From a virus (lineage: Duplodnaviria > Heunggongvirae > Uroviricota > Caudoviricetes): a stretch of DNA of 64,000 nucleotides. The DNA is taken from positions 43,641-107,640 of IMG/VR virus record IMGVR_UViG_3300031760_000015; one strand, given 5' to 3'. This document shows positions 27,122 through 60,616 of the stretch, piece after piece (the first letter of the stretch is position 1; each line of letters opens with the position of its first letter). The position numbers and the translations under genes were made by a program. The notes under the pieces are model-generated. The model worked only from the letters and a program-made list of their open reading frames with translations. It was not told the DNA's origin and made no database searches.

Positions 27122-27194
27122 GTCATCATAGTTCAGTTGGTAGAACACTTCATTGGTAATGAAGAGGTCCCGAGTCCGATTCTCGGTGGTGGCT
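27122..27194 (+). tRNA. tRNA-Thr(GGT)
   Basis: hand-folded cloverleaf; anticodon loop TTGGTAA; T-loop TCCGATT. Confidence 0.55.
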
Positions 27195-30639: not shown

Positions 30640-30726
30640 GCGTCGGTATGCCTAGCAGCGAGAGCACTTGGCTGTAGACCAAGTACGTTAGAAACACCGT
30701 GGGTGCAACTCCTACCCGGCGCACCA
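30640..30726 (+). tRNA. tRNA-Tyr(GTA), type II
   Basis: anticodon arm CTTGG-CTGTAGA-CCAAG, long variable arm, CCA. Confidence 0.65.
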
Positions 30727-33939: not shown

Positions 33940-34376
33940 TTAGGTTCCTCCTGTAAAAATCCTTCTGTTCGCGACAGTGAAAAGGAGTGGTTGTGGCTAG
34001 TAATATAGAAAAAGCAGAATTTATATTATGTGTTCGCCATTAAAGAACGCCGGGAGTTCTCTTACCCCGTAAGGTAGTCCGGAATACACATAAGATTCGC
34101 TCGGCGATTAGATTACGTCGTAAGACAATAAGGTGTCAGTCTAGCGGAAATTGAACTCGTTAGTGTCAATCGTGTAGCATACGAATAATGCTCGCTTGCC
34201 TGCCGTGTGACCGAAGGTGAGGTACGCTGCAAACCAAGAGTAGAAATTGCAGATTAGGGAATGTGTGCTTCGCGGGCACAGGTATTCCCGCGTGAGACTC
34301 GCGGTGAAATCGAGTGGCGGCTCCAATGGATTGAGGCCCAGAAGATGCCAATAGGAGAAGAAACCGCGAGATTTAT
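33940..34376 (+). ncRNA. GC-rich (about 48%) ORF-free structured block upstream of split tRNA-Met; contains GCGGG...CCCGC...GAGACT...TAGTCC motifs reminiscent of group I intron core elements
   Basis: no ORF >30 codons in a 30% GC genome; multiple GC helices. Confidence 0.35.
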
Positions 34377-34414
34377 GGGCGTCTAGCACAGTTGGTCAGT
34401 GCCTTCGGCTCATA
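34377..34414 (+). tRNA. tRNA-Met(CAT) 5' exon (acceptor, D-arm, anticodon stem + CTCATA)
   Basis: GGGCGTC-TA-GCACAGTTGGTCAGTGC-C-TTCGG-CTCATA; 3' partner at 34869-34904. Confidence 0.55.
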
Positions 34415-34442
34415 TCAAGCAAAATCATATCTATAAATTATT

Positions 34443-34853
34443 ATGGATACAAATATTAAAGGTATTATTACCGAATTAAAATGTAAAACTTATTTTTTAG
34501 AATTGGGATATACTGTCTCAACTCCAGAAAATCCAACGAGGTATGATTTTATTTTAGACACTGGAAATAAACTTATAAAAATTCAGGTTAAAACTTGTAC
34601 TTCAGATGGAGAAAAATTAAGTTTTGCTACTTGTTCTAGTCATTTTGTAAATGGAAAAGTTACTCATACTCATTATCAAAATGATAATATTGATTATTTT
34701 TGTACTTGGTATAATAATGAATGTTATCTAATTCCTGTATCAGAGTGTGGGAAAACTGAAAAAAAATTACGATTAGTTCCCACACGAAATGGACAAGTAA
34801 AAAAAATTAGTTTTGCTAAGGATTATATTGCTAAGGAGGTTTTAAATAGATAA
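34443..34853 (+). CDS. PD-(D/E)XK-like homing endonuclease within the tRNA-Met intervening sequence
   Basis: YDFILD ... KIQVKT motifs; paralog of 50608 gene; located between the tRNA halves. Confidence 0.45.
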   Translation: MDTNIKGIITELKCKTYFLELGYTVSTPENPTRYDFILDTGNKLIKIQVKTCTSDGEKLSFATCSSHFVNGKVTHTHYQNDNIDYFCTWYNNECYLIPVSECGKTEKKLRLVPTRNGQVKKISFAKDYIAKEVLNR

Positions 34854-34868
34854 GTGAGCTAGATATGA

Positions 34869-34904
34869 ACCGAATGGTCTTGGGTTCGAGCCCCAAGGCG
34901 CCCA
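34869..34904 (+). tRNA. tRNA-Met(CAT) 3' exon (A38, anticodon stem CCGAA, variable loop, T-arm, acceptor GGCGCCC)
   Basis: T-arm TTGGGTTCGAGCCCCAA; acceptor complementary to 34377-34383; flanking GATATGA pairs with the CTCATATC end of exon 1. Confidence 0.55.
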
Positions 34905-34926
34905 TTTAATAAAAAGGAGTTATATA

Positions 34927-46864: not shown

Positions 46865-47384
46865 CAGTCACCTCCCGCTAATGTGACAACCGTTAACATT
46901 TGTTTGATAGTTTCTGTTGGAAAACGGTATATAAAGAAGCAACAGCACATATCAATCGGACGAGTTGCTACGCCGGTATGATTGAAACTATCGTGGCATC
47001 ATTGAAGAGCCTTCACGCGGCGATGCTGTTTAAACTAATCTTCAACTTGCTGGCGATTTGTCGTAAGTCAGCGCCAACCAAATATTGAAGAGCGGCCCAT
47101 CCTTTACTTGCAAGACTGTGATGGGACTTGAACCGCAAGGGAGATTTGTCGAGTCGGAACTCGTATAAGAGAAGCCGGGGTGCGCAAGAAAGCCAGGATA
47201 AGAGTTGGACCGGCCTGGATGAAAGACGTTCACTTCAATATTTAAGTTATCCGCTGACCAATATGCGGGATATAAATAGTTGGGTATAAATTAAGATATT
47301 TTAAGGTAGCATTGGTGTCATGAGCCAATGAGATAAGATGCTCCTACATCAGCTTAAAATATAAATATAAATAAAATCATAGGA
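46865..47384 (+). ncRNA. GC-rich ORF-free structured block between tRNA and HNH gene
   Basis: hairpins GTCAC..GTGAC, GCAAC..GTTGC; no convincing ORF. Confidence 0.3.
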
Positions 47385-47954
47385 GTGATTATTATGAAAA
47401 AATGGGAAAGGTTTTCTGATGAAGAGTTGCAAGAAATTGCTTATAGAAGTTCTTGCTTAGGAGACTACGCTAAAAATTTAGGCTATTCTATAAAAGGTAC
47501 TAGTGGTAATAGTGCTCGTTCTTCTGTAAAAGCAATGATTGAACTTAAACAAATAAATGTAATGCATTTTAAAGGTTATAAAGATAAATCTACACAATTT
47601 AATTATAAACATGTTAATGAAAATTATAATGTTAGTAATTTATTTATAGAAAATAGCTTCGCAGAAAGAAAACTTATTAGACGTTATTTATTAGCATATA
47701 ATTTAATTCCATATAAATGTGCTTTTTGTGGTAATGAAGGGGAATGGCGAGGAAAGCAGATTAGTTTAGAATTAGACCATATTAATGGCAAGCATAATGA
47801 TAATAGATTAGAAAATCTTCGTTGGCTTTGTCCAAATTGTCACGCTACTACTCCTACATACTGCGGTAAAAATATAACTTATCAATGTGAACAAGCCCTG
47901 TTAGCTCAGTCGGTAGAGCATTCGGCTGGTCAGATAGAAACAAGTCCTAGTTGA
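47385..47954 (+). CDS. HNH homing endonuclease
   Basis: CAFCG ... DHINGKHNDNRLENLRWLCPNCH; 3' end overlaps tRNA-Thr exon 1. Confidence 0.7.
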   Translation: MIIMKKWERFSDEELQEIAYRSSCLGDYAKNLGYSIKGTSGNSARSSVKAMIELKQINVMHFKGYKDKSTQFNYKHVNENYNVSNLFIENSFAERKLIRRYLLAYNLIPYKCAFCGNEGEWRGKQISLELDHINGKHNDNRLENLRWLCPNCHATTPTYCGKNITYQCEQALLAQSVEHSAGQIETSPS

Positions 47955-48020
47955 GTGCAAGACTCAAATCTGGCACCATTAACCGAAGTGTCGGCAGTTC
48001 AAGTCTGTCACAGGGCGCCA
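47895..48020 (+). tRNA. tRNA-Thr(GGT) interrupted by a 50-nt insert in the anticodon loop (insert 47931-47980, between nt 36 and 37)
   Basis: acceptor GCCCTGT/ACAGGGC, D-arm GCTCAGTCGGTAGAGC, anticodon stem TTCGG/CCGAA, T-arm GGCAGTTCAAGTCTGTC, CCA; insert folds into CAGAT/ATCTG and TTGAGT/ACTCAA helices. Confidence 0.55.
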
Positions 48021-48095
48021 GCCTGAGCAAATGTGGAAAGTCGTATGTGCGGTTAGCTGACCTTAAAGCTATTCTAATCTAGAGGAGAATAAAAT

Positions 48096-48635
48096 ATGGA
48101 TAATGTACGTTTAAAGATTCTACCACCTTGGACAATTGTAATTCGTAAGTTTGAGGCTCTATTTGATGGTGACCCACAAATTGCTTGTAATTGTAACTTC
48201 AATGGTTCTAATCCTTCTATTGTTCTTGCTTGTAATAATGGCGATAAGGTTGCCGCACTCCAGAAGATTCTTCCTTCTGATATCTCCTTCGGCAATGTGA
48301 AGTTGAACGTTGTCGTGGATGGTATTCCTTCCAATCGAGCTTTTACTAGCAAGGTAGAATTATTTGATATCGCTTTTAAGGGCAATCCAGCATACGCTTA
48401 TTCTGTGTGCCCAGCTGAAGATGGTTATATGTGGATTGGAACTACTTATGTAGTATTTAAGAATTGTGTTGTACAGTTCGCCGCAGATAATCTAAATGAT
48501 TGCCACGGTATCATTAGCACTCTATATCAAACTATCGCAGAAGAACTTCTACGTGGTGAAGCTACCGAAGGTGTTTTCTATAATACTGATGTAGAGCGCG
48601 CAAATCTTGGTAAGCCTCTAGGTGAGTGGCCATAA
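48096..48635 (+). CDS. hypothetical protein with GC-biased codon usage
   Basis: ORF track; RBS GAGGAG. Confidence 0.5.
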   Translation: MDNVRLKILPPWTIVIRKFEALFDGDPQIACNCNFNGSNPSIVLACNNGDKVAALQKILPSDISFGNVKLNVVVDGIPSNRAFTSKVELFDIAFKGNPAYAYSVCPAEDGYMWIGTTYVVFKNCVVQFAADNLNDCHGIISTLYQTIAEELLRGEATEGVFYNTDVERANLGKPLGEWP

Positions 48636-48648
48636 TCCACTCAATTAT

Positions 48649-48723
48649 GACCCTATGGTGTAGTTGGTCTAACATATTAGCCTGTCACGCTAAAGATCAC
48701 GGGTTCAAATCCCGTTAGGGTCG
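48649..48723 (+). tRNA. tRNA-Asp(GTC)
   Basis: acceptor GACCCTA/TAGGGTC, anticodon loop CTGTCAC, T-arm ACGGGTTCAAATCCCGT. Confidence 0.65.
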
Positions 48724-49221: not shown

Positions 49222-49313
49222 TAAGCCTTTACAGCAATTTTTAAATGGTTAAATTATTTTGTTTAAAGTACAGAGTAAGAGAAGGTTCGAGCCCTTCATA
49301 ATTAAAAGGCTTA
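49222..49313 (+). ncRNA. E5: 9-bp stem (TAAGCCTTT/AAAGGCTTA) + ACAGCAATTT motif element containing a T-arm-like hairpin (GAAGGTTCGAGCCCTTC)
   Basis: motif 49231-49240; T-arm-like 49281-49297. Confidence 0.45.
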
Positions 49314-50551: not shown

Positions 50552-50587
50552 GGCGGGTTAAGCCTAATGGTAAGGCAGGAGATTGCT
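50552..50587 (+). tRNA. tRNA-Ser(GCT) 5' exon
   Basis: GGCGGGT-TA-AGCCTAATGGTAAGGC-A-GGAGA-TTGCT; partner exon at 51251-51309. Confidence 0.5.
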
Positions 50588-50607
50588 TTTTTACTTAATT
50601 AAACTTA

Positions 50608-51225
50608 ATGGTAGAAACAAAGATTAAAGGGCTTACGACAGAATTATTATGTCAGGCATATCTTACTTCTTTAGGATATAATATTTCTATTCCTATTGGC
50701 GAAGATTGTAGATATGATATGATTCTGGATTTAAATGGAAAACTTTTGCGTATACAAGTTAAAACTTGTCAAGAAGAAGAAAATAGAATATCTTTTCGTA
50801 CTTGTAGTATTACAACATCCGGAAAAGAAAATATTATTCATAAATATACTAAAGACCAAATTGATTTAATAGCTACTTATTATAATGACCAATGTTATTT
50901 AATTCCAATTGAAGAATGTGAAGGAATGAAAGGTAGAAGTTTAGTTTTTTCACCAGAAAAAACAAATGCTATTAAACCTTTATATATTAAAGATTATACA
51001 GCAGAAATCATTTTAAATAAAATCCTTAATAATGAACAAATTAAAAAGGAGGATGATTTTATTGTGTATCAATATGATTTAAATAATAACTTACTTAATC
51101 AATTTTCTTCATACGCAGAAGCAGGAACTTCCATTAACAAACCTTCTAGTCATATAAGTCAATGTGCTAGAGGATTAAGAAAAACCGCATATGGTTTTAT
51201 TTGGTCATTAACATTAAAGGATTAA
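50608..51225 (+). CDS. PD-(D/E)XK-like homing endonuclease with NUMOD-like C-terminus, inside the tRNA-Ser intervening sequence
   Basis: YDMILD ... RIQVKT; C-terminal ...CARGLRKTAYGFIWS; paralog of 34443 gene. Confidence 0.45.
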   Translation: MVETKIKGLTTELLCQAYLTSLGYNISIPIGEDCRYDMILDLNGKLLRIQVKTCQEEENRISFRTCSITTSGKENIIHKYTKDQIDLIATYYNDQCYLIPIEECEGMKGRSLVFSPEKTNAIKPLYIKDYTAEIILNKILNNEQIKKEDDFIVYQYDLNNNLLNQFSSYAEAGTSINKPSSHISQCARGLRKTAYGFIWSLTLKD

Positions 51226-51250
51226 GAAAGAAAAAAAGCAATCTCCCAGT

Positions 51251-51309
51251 AATCGACGTATGTCGGTGTTTCGGTTCAAGTCCGAAACCCGTCGCCAATT
51301 GTGGACTGT
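51251..51309 (+). tRNA. tRNA-Ser(GCT) 3' exon (AA, anticodon stem TCTCC, variable-arm hairpin CGAC-GTAT-GTCG, T-arm, acceptor ACCCGTC, G, CCA)
   Basis: acceptor complementary to 50552-50558; intron-proximal AAAAGCAA pairs with TTGCTTTT of exon 1. Confidence 0.5.
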
Positions 51310-58791: not shown

Positions 58792-59400
58792 ATGAGTGAC
58801 TTGGAATTTTTAGGGTTTGCTAACGAAGTTAGTACTCTTGATCCTATAATGTACCAATACTTTAATCAACTTTTAAAAAATAGAACTATTGTTTTAAATG
58901 CAGAAATTGATGAAAGTATTTTAGAAACAATAGTATTACCTTTAAAGAATTTTGAACAAGATGGAGATATTATTAATCCTATTAAATTAATTTTAAATAC
59001 CCCAGGGGGCTCTGTGGCTGATGGTTTAATGTTATGTAATGTTATTGACAATTATAAAAAACCATTAGAAATTATTGTCCCTTCTTATGCTTGTAGTATG
59101 GGAACAATTATTCTTTGTTCTGGTAATAATAATCCTAATGTTATTAAAAAATGTTATCCTTTTTCTTTTGCTTTATTTCATTCTGGACAAACTTACGTAG
59201 GTGGAGAATCTACTTCTGTTGACGATGTAATTGATTTTAACCGCGGAGTAGATAATAAAATTAAAGAATATATTATTAAAAATACTAATATTACAGAAGA
59301 ACTTTATGATAAACATCATAGAAAACAATGGTATTTAACCGCAGAAGAAATGTTACAGTATCATCTTGTCGATGAAATAATTGGTAAGGAAAGTGATTAA
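58792..59400 (+). CDS. clpP: ClpP-family serine protease
   Basis: NTPGGSVADGLMLCNVIDNYKKPLEIIVPSYACSMGTIIL matches ClpP core incl. catalytic Ser. Confidence 0.6.
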   Translation: MSDLEFLGFANEVSTLDPIMYQYFNQLLKNRTIVLNAEIDESILETIVLPLKNFEQDGDIINPIKLILNTPGGSVADGLMLCNVIDNYKKPLEIIVPSYACSMGTIILCSGNNNPNVIKKCYPFSFALFHSGQTYVGGESTSVDDVIDFNRGVDNKIKEYIIKNTNITEELYDKHHRKQWYLTAEEMLQYHLVDEIIGKESD

Positions 59401-60616
59401 TGTGATTTATTTTATTGATACAAGCGCCGTATTGGAAGGCGCTTTATCTTTATACGACCATAGTCATATTTATTTAAGCCCATTGGTATTAATGGAATTA
59501 GAAAATTTAAAAACTAATGGTAATGAACATATTAAATTTTGCGCGCGAGAAGCTATTCGTACAATTATTCAATCAGAAATTGCTATGACAACAATTTCCC
59601 AAAGAAAAATTTTAAATGTATTGAAAAAAAATAATTGTTTAATGGACATTAACGATCATAAAATGATCTGTGAAGCTTTAATCTTGAATAATTATAATGA
59701 AGTTATTTTTATAACAAGTGATTGCGCTCAATTATTATTTGCTCGTACTTTAGGATTAAAAACTAATTATTTTATTCCTAAAGAAGAAAAAAAGCAGGAA
59801 GAATATTGCGGTTGGAAAAAATATACTCCATCTGAAGATGAATTAATTTCTTTATATTCTAAACCAAATGAAAATGTTTTAAACGCAAATATTAATGAAT
59901 ATTGTGAAATTTATGAGGAAAAAGAATTAAAAGATGTTCTTCGTTGGACTGGAGAAAAATATACTTCATTAAAATGGTCTAATTTTAAAAATAATTTTTT
60001 AAATAAAAAAATTTCTCCATTAAATTTAGAACAAAAAATGGCTTTTGATTTATTACAAAATAATGATATTGCTGTAAAAATACTTGTTGGATATCCTGGC
60101 ACTGGTAAAGATTACCTAATGTTACTTCATGCTTTAGATTTAATTCAAAAAGGAATTATGGATAAAATTATATTCGTAAGAAATCTTGTTCCATTTAAAG
60201 ACGCCCCTGAAATTGGTTATCTTGCAGGAGATTTACAACAAAAAATTTCTTGGGGACTTGGACCATTAAGTGGTATTCTTGGAGAAGAAGGATTAAATCA
60301 ATATATTGATGAAGGTATAATTGAAGCTGTTAATTTAGGTTTTATTCGTGGCTGTTCTTGGGATAAAACAATTATTTATGTTTCAGAAGGACAAAATATT
60401 ACTGGCGGCGGCTATAAATTATTAATTAGTAGATGCGGTCAAGGCAGTCAATTATGGGTTAATGGAGATATTTTACAAACTGATAGCAAAGAATTTGAAA
60501 AAAATAATGGACTATTAAGACTAAGTAATTCATTAAAAAATAATCCACTTGCAGGAACTGTTAAATTAATTAAAACAGAACGTAGTCCTGTAGCGGAATT
60601 AGCAAAAATTATCTAA
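59381..60616 (+). CDS. phoH: PhoH-like ATPase with N-terminal PIN-like domain (atypical Walker A GYPGTGKD)
   Basis: FIDTSAVLEG N-terminus; GTGK P-loop; phage phoH-like architecture. Confidence 0.45.
   Translation: MVRKVINVIYFIDTSAVLEGALSLYDHSHIYLSPLVLMELENLKTNGNEHIKFCAREAIRTIIQSEIAMTTISQRKILNVLKKNNCLMDINDHKMICEALILNNYNEVIFITSDCAQLLFARTLGLKTNYFIPKEEKKQEEYCGWKKYTPSEDELISLYSKPNENVLNANINEYCEIYEEKELKDVLRWTGEKYTSLKWSNFKNNFLNKKISPLNLEQKMAFDLLQNNDIAVKILVGYPGTGKDYLMLLHALDLIQKGIMDKIIFVRNLVPFKDAPEIGYLAGDLQQKISWGLGPLSGILGEEGLNQYIDEGIIEAVNLGFIRGCSWDKTIIYVSEGQNITGGGYKLLISRCGQGSQLWVNGDILQTDSKEFEKNNGLLRLSNSLKNNPLAGTVKLIKTERSPVAELAKII

Follow-up and report, generated by a model that had tools for sequence, protein, structure and literature searches.

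We analysed a stretch of 64,000 nucleotides (nt) from a virus of the Caudoviricetes (IMG/VR record IMGVR_UViG_3300031760_000015), referred to here in its whole length as the window, and describe an interrupted tRNA gene that lies at 47895-48020 on its plus strand, within a region of about 29 tRNA genes. Read from the sequence, this gene forms a full cloverleaf of 126 nt with an encoded CCA: acceptor stem (GCCCUGU/ACAGGGC), D stem (GCUC/GAGC), anticodon stem (UUCGG/CCGAA) and T stem (GGCAG/CUGUC) are all in place and the discriminator G73 is followed by CCA, but the anticodon loop has 57 nt instead of the usual 7. Rfam RF00005 (gathering score 29) matched 47895-48020 with 51.8 bits (E = 6.4e-10) and placed an insertion of about 54 nt in the anticodon loop, and ARAGORN, which overlooked the gene with its default settings, detected it in intron mode. 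The first-pass annotation of this DNA had already described intact tRNA arms and CCA together with 50 extra nt in the anticodon loop; Rfam and the ARAGORN intron mode agree with it on both counts, as do the directly read stems on the first. The interrupted tRNA is thus a real observation and far from chance. Upstream of the gene and running into it, also on the plus strand, is a free-standing HNH homing-endonuclease gene at 47394-47954, recognized by Pfam and PHROG, for which the gene call starts at ATG 47394 and a GTG start at 47385 is possible. Among cultured phages, megablast with 46900-48700 gave no match and a distant BLAST search with the 126-nt gene gave only a 33-nt match in the D arm. 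The minimum free energy (MFE) fold of the full 126-nt precursor was a non-cloverleaf alternative in which exon is paired with intron, and this pairing was dropped from consideration, since it is not conserved in relatives.

From the window sequence alone the splice junctions are ambiguous, as a 5' half ending in CUG joined to UUAA would give tRNA-Asn(GUU), and one ending in CUGGU joined to AA would give tRNA-Thr(GGU). We retrieved 62 related viral loci (denoted by L numbers) through the conserved downstream gene at 48096-48635, and in more than 12 related loci an uninterrupted tRNA-Asn(GTT) stands at the syntenic position. When the CUG/UUAA version of the spliced sequence was compared by BLAST with several hundred intron-less tRNAs of related loci, its best matches were tRNA-Asn only, with 91% identity in a 56-nt stretch that includes the junction and 84% along the whole 76 nt; the top five, comprising every match longer than 34 nt, were all tRNA-Asn, and the only similarity to any Thr tRNA was a 19-nt match in the D arm. 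ARAGORN called the same spliced sequence Asn(gtt) with a 7-nt loop, CUGUUAA. The interrupted gene is the sole Asn tRNA of the tRNA region and no second one was found in the window, which encodes an ordinary tRNA-Thr(GGU) at 27122. Furthermore, the exons of the intron-less allele in L011 and of the intron-bearing allele in L168 differ at one position only, and the two alleles are separated by a clean 49-nt indel between CTG and TTAA. Synteny, best matches, a lone Asn gene beside a separate Thr(GGU) gene and this indel, combined together, lead us to conclude that the gene almost certainly encodes tRNA-Asn(GUU), with a 50-nt intron at 47929-47978 between G34 and U35. Its 5' exon (nt 1-34, ending in C32 U33 G34) would then occupy 47895-47928 and its 3' exon (nt 35-76, from U35 U36 A37 A38 through G73 and CCA) 47979-48020, both on the plus strand and both placed by Rfam, by the tRNA-Asn best matches and by alignment with the intron-less allele. 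The gene had originally been taken for tRNA-Thr(GGT) with an insert at 47931-47980 between nt 36 and 37. The CTG/TTAA junction of the intron-less allele, the Asn best matches and the normal Thr(GGU) gene at 27122 speak for Asn, and the insert had been placed 2 nt off, its position being 34/35. It had also been suggested to look for an intron-less allele in relatives, and such alleles are indeed present, in L011 as well as at the syntenic tRNA-Asn loci.

The 50-nt intron, a class A, mini-tRNA-like member of the family described below (79.8 bits with covariance model R1), is composed of two helices, which had been noticed in the insert before and were recovered in the MFE fold of the isolated insert. 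All its parts lie on the plus strand. The 5' strand of an acceptor-like stem P1 (GUCAGAU, 47929-47935) starts at the 5' splice site and pairs with 47968-47974 (AUCUGGC). It is followed by a 15-nt linker (AGAAACAAGUCCUAG, 47936-47950), the sequence of which is conserved in the alignment of Asn introns, and by a T-arm-like hairpin P2 (UUGAG-UGCAAGA-CUCAA, 47951-47967) of 5 base pairs (bp), with a 7-nt loop and a G-C closing pair, which directly abuts the 3' strand of P1 and holds the stop codon UGA (47952-47954) of the HNH gene. A single-stranded tail ACCA (47975-47978), akin to a discriminator plus CCA, ends at the 3' splice site. P2 and the 3' strand of P1 are supported by the family table, by covariation and by the MFE fold, and the tail by the family table. 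As it comprises 7+5 stacked bp, a G-C-closed loop of 7 nt and an unpaired NCCA, the intron can be read as the 12-bp acceptor/T-arm minihelix of a tRNA, that is, as a stripped-down tRNA. The linker occupies the place where longer relatives have D-arm-like or anticodon-arm-like hairpins. In the Pro intron of L017 the MFE fold puts UA, read as U8-A9, and then a D-arm-like hairpin GCAU-AAUGGUA-AUGC between P1 and P2, and the 91-nt Asn intron of L029 shows, by eye, extra hairpins at the linker place. The covariance model of the intron also matched, weakly, T-arm/acceptor ends of ordinary tRNAs.

The isolated intron matched no Rfam family, lax thresholds included, and an Rfam scan of the region gave no match to a ribozyme or intron family. 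Group I introns need a core of P3-P9, at least about 200 nt, a terminal U of the 5' exon that pairs with a G in P1, and a terminal G. We rejected a group I intron, as there are 50 nt without a core, the exon ends in G34, the intron ends in A and RF00028 gave no match at E values up to 10. The hallmarks of group II/III introns are a 5' GUGYG, domains V and VI and a bulged branch A, and this assignment was rejected as well, there being only two helices in 50 nt, no Rfam match, and GUGCG in a single relative (L021). The earlier opinion that the insert is far too short for a group I or group II intron is thus upheld by its size, its two helices and the lack of an Rfam match.

Homologous introns were found in related rumen phages, in tRNA genes of five isotypes, namely in seven further distinct Asn alleles (L008, L021/L048, L029, L065, L074, L085 and L168/L241), in Lys(UUU) genes of L006 and L003, in Leu(UAA) genes of L002-L006, L014 and L015, in the Tyr(GUA) gene of L050 and in the Pro(UGG) gene of L017. 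The small members measure 46-57 nt, and the L029 Asn intron is longer. They share one layout, in which the first pair of a 7-bp P1 stands at the 5' junction and is followed by a linker, an abutting 5-bp P2 with a 7-nt loop, and a tail of 2-4 nt that ends at the 3' junction. P1 has 7 bp in almost all members, with compensatory changes, and the tails read ACCA, GCCA, ACAA, GCAA, AA or AC, being NCCA in 10 of 16 members. Irrespective of tail length the intron sits at 34/35 in Asn, Lys, Tyr, Pro and possibly Leu, and across the family the last base of the 5' exon is G, U or A and that of the intron A or C. Geometry was counted by fixed offsets from the splice sites, and covariation was assessed on fixed-offset columns, since alignment by MAFFT and the covariance model misplaced the tail of L021. 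This geometry fits 14 curated introns, with 163 of 168 positions paired. Among 13 distinct introns 96.8% of the cells are paired, against 29-43% in slid controls, and 11 of the 12 pairs show changes on both sides; compensatory cells numbered 53, against 15.3±3.4 in shuffles (0/500 reached the observed count), and P2 is closed by G-C in each of the 13. With a covariance model derived from the Asn set, all Asn members scored 64-84 bits and one Lys member 30 bits, and single-sequence MFE folding of isolated introns regained P1, P2 and a free tail in 5 of 7. Scans of metagenomes and genomes with GGCTGGT..GCRCMATTAACC gave at least five true members among the matches listed, most matches being due to chance. 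It may be noted that ARAGORN mislabels most members, calling Asn as Thr, Lys as Arg or Thr, Leu as Val or Leu-caa, Tyr as Ser and Pro as Phe.

The exons of these genes are equally well preserved. In 7-9 diverged intron-bearing alleles they keep perfect cloverleaves and the intact loop halves CUG and UUAA, and the anticodon stem on either side of the intron shows 100% pairing, 4 of its 5 pairs covarying among intron-bearing alleles. Since this flanking stem is fully paired and covarying, the interrupted genes are still under selection as tRNAs. The covariation of the stem, together with the near-identical alleles with and without the intron, points to a live mobile intron in a selected tRNA rather than to debris, and we regard it as quite probable, from these sequence comparisons, that the intron is functional and spliced.

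The alleles with and without intron and with near-identical exons, the occurrence in five isotypes and a member that carries an open reading frame (ORF) mark a mobile intron family, the small members of which are ORF-less. The ORF-carrying member is the tRNA-Tyr(GUA) gene of L050 (4103-4626), which has its intron at 34/35 with an I-Ssp6803I-like PD-(D/E)XK ORF in the linker, and the termini of which (GUUAUAU/AUAUAGC, UCGAG-UUCAAUU-CUCGA and tail ACCA) are as in the small introns; its ORF can be read only if TAG codes for an amino acid, and it stops at a UAA in exon 2. The tRNA region of the window is itself dense in homing endonuclease genes, with HNH, two GIY-YIG and two PDDEXK genes. The HNH ORF beside the intron matched Pfam PF01844 with 24.3 bits against a cut-off of 21.4 (E = 3.4e-5) and PHROG 10822 (E = 6e-41). 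These profile matches end near residues 154-171, and the last 19 or so codons run through the tRNA 5' exon into the intron. It had been noticed earlier that this ORF terminates inside the insert, which the TGA at 47952-47954 bears out, and this had been taken to mean that translation and tRNA processing share sequence. The overlap itself stands, but nothing about it is special to the intron: homologs of the HNH protein occur in 228 phage records and are located in tRNA regions of T5-like and Herelleviridae phages, and in Enterococcus phage EFDG1 the 3' end of the homolog overlaps 51 nt of an uninterrupted tRNA-Leu. The overlap is therefore incidental and a habit of this endonuclease family rather than a property of the intron. 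The HNH gene stands beside the intron only in the window lineage (the window and L059/L064), and other intron-bearing Asn alleles have no nearby endonuclease gene. In cyanophages an ORF-less psbA intron and the free-standing endonuclease F-CphI take part in collaborative homing, and the present arrangement parallels it in that an ORF-less intron lies beside a free-standing endonuclease gene, though here this adjacency is restricted to the window and L059/L064. It is possible that the HNH protein likewise cuts intron-less tRNA alleles and that the intron confers immunity; such a role is neither required nor supported.

As the introns have 46-57 nt, two helices, no ribozyme core and no known self-splicing chemistry, we propose that enzymes remove them, and as their conserved part is a minimal substrate of tRNA end-processing enzymes, it is these that we propose. 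Excision by tRNA end-processing enzymes followed by sealing by an RNA ligase is the best explanation we can offer, although we give it slightly less than an even chance. The cut of RNase P, 5' of the nested minihelix and hence at the 5' splice site, would leave a 3'-OH on G34. An RNase Z-like or other 3'-end endonuclease would cut after the tail, which is the 3' splice site, and leave a 5'-phosphate on U35. The exon halves, kept together by the acceptor and anticodon stems, would form a tRNA nicked in its anticodon loop, which a 3'-OH/5'-phosphate ligase would seal. RNase P and RNase Z both accept acceptor/T-arm minihelices and both leave 3'-OH and 5'-phosphate ends, and the window family has the features of such a substrate, with 7+5 bp, a 7-nt loop, the G-C closing pair (13/13) and an NCCA tail (10/16). 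The 3' junction ACCA/UUAA, moreover, resembles the ends of the phage's own CCA-encoding tRNAs, in which NCCA is followed by UUA. The assignment of the 5' site to RNase P is a tentative part of this model, and we think it somewhat more apt to fail than to hold. A candidate ATP-dependent RNA ligase of 216 residues with a KVDGTN motif is encoded 5.5 kb upstream on the plus strand (41746-42396; Pfam PF09414, E = 3e-17; PHROG 548). It gave weak NCBIfam matches to Rnl2/DRB0094 and no match in PDB, and it might conceivably be the sealing enzyme, which we suggest with still greater reserve. An RNase III-type cut was rejected, as the required 2-nt stagger (U33 with A and G34 with C of the tail) works only in the window sequence and fails with ACAA or AA tails.

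A number of points weigh against this proposal. The P2 loop reads xGCAxxx and not the canonical UUCRANY of a T-loop, and the isolated intron is not called a tRNA by ARAGORN or Rfam. The tail varies from 2 to 4 nt and the 3' splice site is poorly explained: RNase Z usually cleaves directly behind the discriminator, and in many bacteria CCA inhibits it, so that a canonical cut would leave 1-3 extra nt on exon 2. Close relatives differ in having a CCA or a CAA tail, and CCA as such is therefore not essential. In the related introns of Lak megaphages, discussed below, RNase P cannot define the 5' site, because there the nested tRNA starts away from the 5' junction. With a Ro-like DUF2828 protein and a drum RNA beside it, the candidate ligase may be part of an RNA-repair module that is unrelated. 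The enzyme roles, and splicing itself, are predictions from sequence. Finally, a ruler based on the anticodon stem, always giving 34/35, fits equally well, except in the ambiguous Leu case.

With such a ruler, a dedicated phage or host endonuclease would measure from the anticodon stem and cut after nt 34 and before nt 35, a ligase would join the halves, and the minihelix would serve elsewhere, in folding, protein binding, or the stability or mobility of the intron. The constancy of 34/35 across Asn, Lys, Tyr, Pro and perhaps Leu, independent of how long the tail is, argues for this, and so does a second intron class of the same phages, which obeys a different and equally strict junction rule. 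Candidates would be PIN+PhoH2-type RNase/helicases and I-Ssp6803I-like PD-(D/E)XK proteins, and the window encodes a PIN_4+PhoH protein (NCBIfam PhoH2) and two PDDEXK_5 proteins. PD-(D/E)XK homing endonucleases, however, act on DNA, we know of no dedicated enzyme of this kind in bacteria, and a conserved 7+5-bp, 7-nt-loop, NCCA-tailed minihelix that starts at the 5' junction is left unexplained, so that we consider this explanation unlikely. It could also be argued that nothing is spliced at all and that a selfish tRNA-derived element, or a scar of homing-endonuclease activity, sits in the anticodon loop of a dead tRNA and stays in the RNA permanently, given that phages can do without any single tRNA and that the region is crowded with homing endonuclease genes. 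The perfect cloverleaves and intact CUG and UUAA halves of 7-9 diverged alleles, an anticodon stem that covaries around the intron, and the covarying structure of the intron itself are hard to reconcile with this; moreover, the gene is the only Asn tRNA, at a site where relatives keep an intact one, and the same design recurs in five isotypes, which makes a dead tRNA improbable in our view.

Catalysis by RNA would account for the retention of structure and of a sequence-conserved linker, whether the intron is a tiny self-splicing or self-cleaving RNA of a new kind or a fragment that needs a catalytic RNA in trans, such as a split group I core or another phage non-coding RNA. The same phage group has group I introns, recognized by core motifs by eye only, in tRNA-Leu(UAA) and in suppressor tRNAs, and large non-coding RNAs (ROOL, drum) accompany these tRNA clusters. 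Yet 46-50 nt with two helices are far below any known splicing ribozyme, exons ending in G, U or A and introns ending in A or C offer no U.G pair and no omega-G, and Rfam gave no ribozyme or intron match even at lax thresholds; we judge an RNA catalyst to be very improbable. Least credible, and in our opinion close to untenable, is an archaeal-type intron with a bulge-helix-bulge motif (BHB) that is cut by an EndA-like splicing endonuclease. It would likewise be short and protein-dependent, and the window sequence permits a GGU/ACC pairing, on which, along with a 3-nt AUU bulge, the first-pass annotation had founded its likeness to a relaxed BHB. At the true junctions no two 3-nt bulges around a 4-bp helix are found (CGGC fails to pair with GCAC), the conserved 7-bp P1 begins with G47929 and U47930, and the ACC belongs to the tail, so that the pairing is lost in relatives in which the tail reads ACAA, GCAA, AA or AC. 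A Pfam scan of 43 window ORFs revealed neither a tRNA_int_endo (PF01974/PF02778) nor an RtcB domain. The hosts, furthermore, appear to be bacteria, judged by the GH25/peptidoglycan-binding endolysins of the window lineage; one relative was binned with Acutalibacteraceae, and relatives carry ROOL RNA.

Several other features of the tRNA region and of its relatives were noted. A drum RNA at 43192-43303 (Rfam, 70.8 bits) lies near the small RNA ligase, a DUF2828/DUF7788/VWA protein (38483-40111; 'RNA-binding protein' in PHROG, possibly Ro-like) and a PTH2 peptidyl-tRNA hydrolase (37605-38108), and together they look like an RNA repair or quality-control module within the tRNA region. Between tRNA-Leu(UAG) and the HNH gene, 518 nt (46867-47384) hold no convincing ORF. 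Relatives have a ROOL RNA at the equivalent position (L003 1275-1868 and others), and the window segment gave no ROOL match and no BLAST similarity to ROOL, its folding energy being ordinary (z = -0.6). In 27122-51926 about half of the tRNA genes encode CCA, and the CCA-less ones run straight into UUA or UUU, which right after a CCA-less tRNA is a signature of RNase Z substrates in Firmicutes. A class II tRNA-Tyr(GUA) at 30640-30723 (Rfam, 38.2 bits) was missed by ARAGORN, and an odd tRNA-Phe(AAA) at 49235-49305 was called by ARAGORN and not reported by Rfam. The PIN_4 and PhoH (PhoH2-like RNase/helicase) protein, a possible RNA endonuclease candidate, is encoded at 59381-60616. Many relatives appear TAG-recoded, and amber-suppressor tRNAs (CUA) in L009 (6771-7039), L010, L012 and L023 (2637-2902) have introns of about 177 nt with IC3-like group I motifs (GAUAAAGUCCGGACC) recognized by eye. 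Group I-like introns of 320-726 nt, some with an HNH ORF, were seen, also by eye, in tRNA-Leu(UAA) of L009, L017, L018, L020 and L061. RNAs of about 120 nt in L039 (7016-7135), L040 (4536-4665), L043 (5965-6088) and L056 (3263-3382) combine tRNA-like GGGG...CCCCACCA ends with a normal T-arm and an internal CAGCAAUUUUU that is conserved; ARAGORN labels them as intron-containing tRNAs with an odd anticodon position, and they could be miniature tmRNA-like or other tRNA-like RNAs.

The second intron class consists of inserts of 440-780 nt in anticodon loops, which carry an I-Ssp6803I-like PDDEXK_5 ORF with or without NUMOD1 and leave no room for a group I core. Two of them are in the window, in tRNA-Met (34376-34905, intron 34414-34867) and tRNA-Ser(GCU) (50552-51297, intron 50588-51239), both introns being almost entirely PD-(D/E)XK endonuclease ORF, and eight to nine more are in relatives (L013/L015, L032, L039, L041, L043, L046 and L056). 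In nine tRNAs, of the isotypes Met, Ser (twice), Pro, Asn, Ile, Gln (twice) and Thr, the intron sits at 36/37, and the anticodon is paired with the final 3 nt of the intron, G.U pairs counted, so as to form one continuous helix with the junctions 3 bp apart. This spacing would mirror the DNA cut of I-Ssp6803I, taken to leave a 3-nt 3' overhang. ARAGORN mislabels several of these genes as well, calling Ser as Gly, Ile as Asp, Gln as Leu and Thr as Ser. The PD-(D/E)XK-ORF inserts are a second unexplained class of introns.

To our knowledge, every bacterial or phage tRNA intron with a known mechanism self-splices, and nearly all belong to group I. A conserved, covarying and mobile intron of 46-57 nt would therefore imply enzyme-dependent tRNA splicing in bacteria or their viruses. 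If true, the bacterial world would have its first pathway of enzyme-dependent tRNA splicing, neither self-splicing nor of the BHB/EndA type, and this would provide phage and bacterial RNA ligases with a routine, physiological substrate. In its most general form, that bacterial viruses use a third route of tRNA splicing, in which mobile introns reduced to a minihelix are excised by the end-processing machinery and resealed by a ligase, we regard the idea as speculative and rather unlikely to hold in full. For annotation it matters that standard tools overlook such tRNA genes or give them the wrong amino acid, and the introns are also relevant to the idea of an origin of tRNAs, and of their introns, by the joining of minihelices.

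Among known systems, group I introns are familiar from anticodon loops of bacterial, cyanobacterial and phage tRNA-Leu(UAA), fMet and Ile. They also occur in anticodon loops of tRNA-Asn and tRNA-Asp in Patescibacteria (PMC13011429). Like the window family, group I tRNA introns sit in the anticodon loop, are mobile, sometimes host homing endonucleases and co-occur in the same phage group, but they measure at least 200 nt, possess a catalytic core and have U at the 5' splice site and G at their end. The archaeal and eukaryal tRNA introns (BHB, EndA/TSEN with RtcB/Trl1) share with the proposed scheme a short non-catalytic intron and the logic of endonuclease plus ligase. They differ in having a BHB, in their position at 37/38 and in their cyclic phosphate/5'-OH ends, 3'-OH/5'-phosphate ends being predicted here, and the present case is that of a bacterial virus. 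In mitochondrial transcripts, MALAT1 mascRNA and minihelix substrates an embedded tRNA-like fold likewise guides cuts at its own ends by RNase P and RNase Z; such tRNA-like punctuation is cleavage only, whereas our model requires religation of the flanks, which has not previously been described.

The closest likeness is to the tRNA introns of Lak megaphages, described by Devoto et al. 2019 (Nat Microbiol, PMC6784885) as "enigmatic" and Rfam-negative, one of which "itself may encode a tRNA". These introns are 79-114 nt long, are not group I, lie in anticodon loops and occur as intron-plus and intron-minus alleles (PMC6784885, Table S6). Like the window family they contain a nested unit with a 7-bp acceptor stem and a T-arm, the 3' end of which lies 1-3 nt before the 3' junction (PMC6784885, Table S6). 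Unlike the window intron they have a 5' hairpin and an A/U spacer (AAAUUAAA), so that the nested tRNA does not start at the 5' junction, and they sit at about 36/37, the window family being at 34/35. They also keep canonical UUCGAAU T-loops, one being a full tRNA, whereas the window intron is a bare minihelix with the loop UGCAAGA, and the window lineage, a rumen metagenome contig of about 185 kb, differs from Lak and probably has Gram-positive hosts. The window intron thus appears, on structural grounds, to be a minimal form of the Lak nested-tRNA design in a different phage lineage. A literature search for a proposed mechanism of such introns found none. Nested-tRNA introns in phage tRNAs have been known, and left unexplained, since 2019. 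What is new here is the minimal minihelix variant, the splice-site rule, the occurrence in five isotypes of another phage group, the ORF-carrying member and a testable mechanism, and the notion that the ends of the minihelix are the splice sites turns the "enigmatic" Lak introns into a concrete, testable hypothesis.

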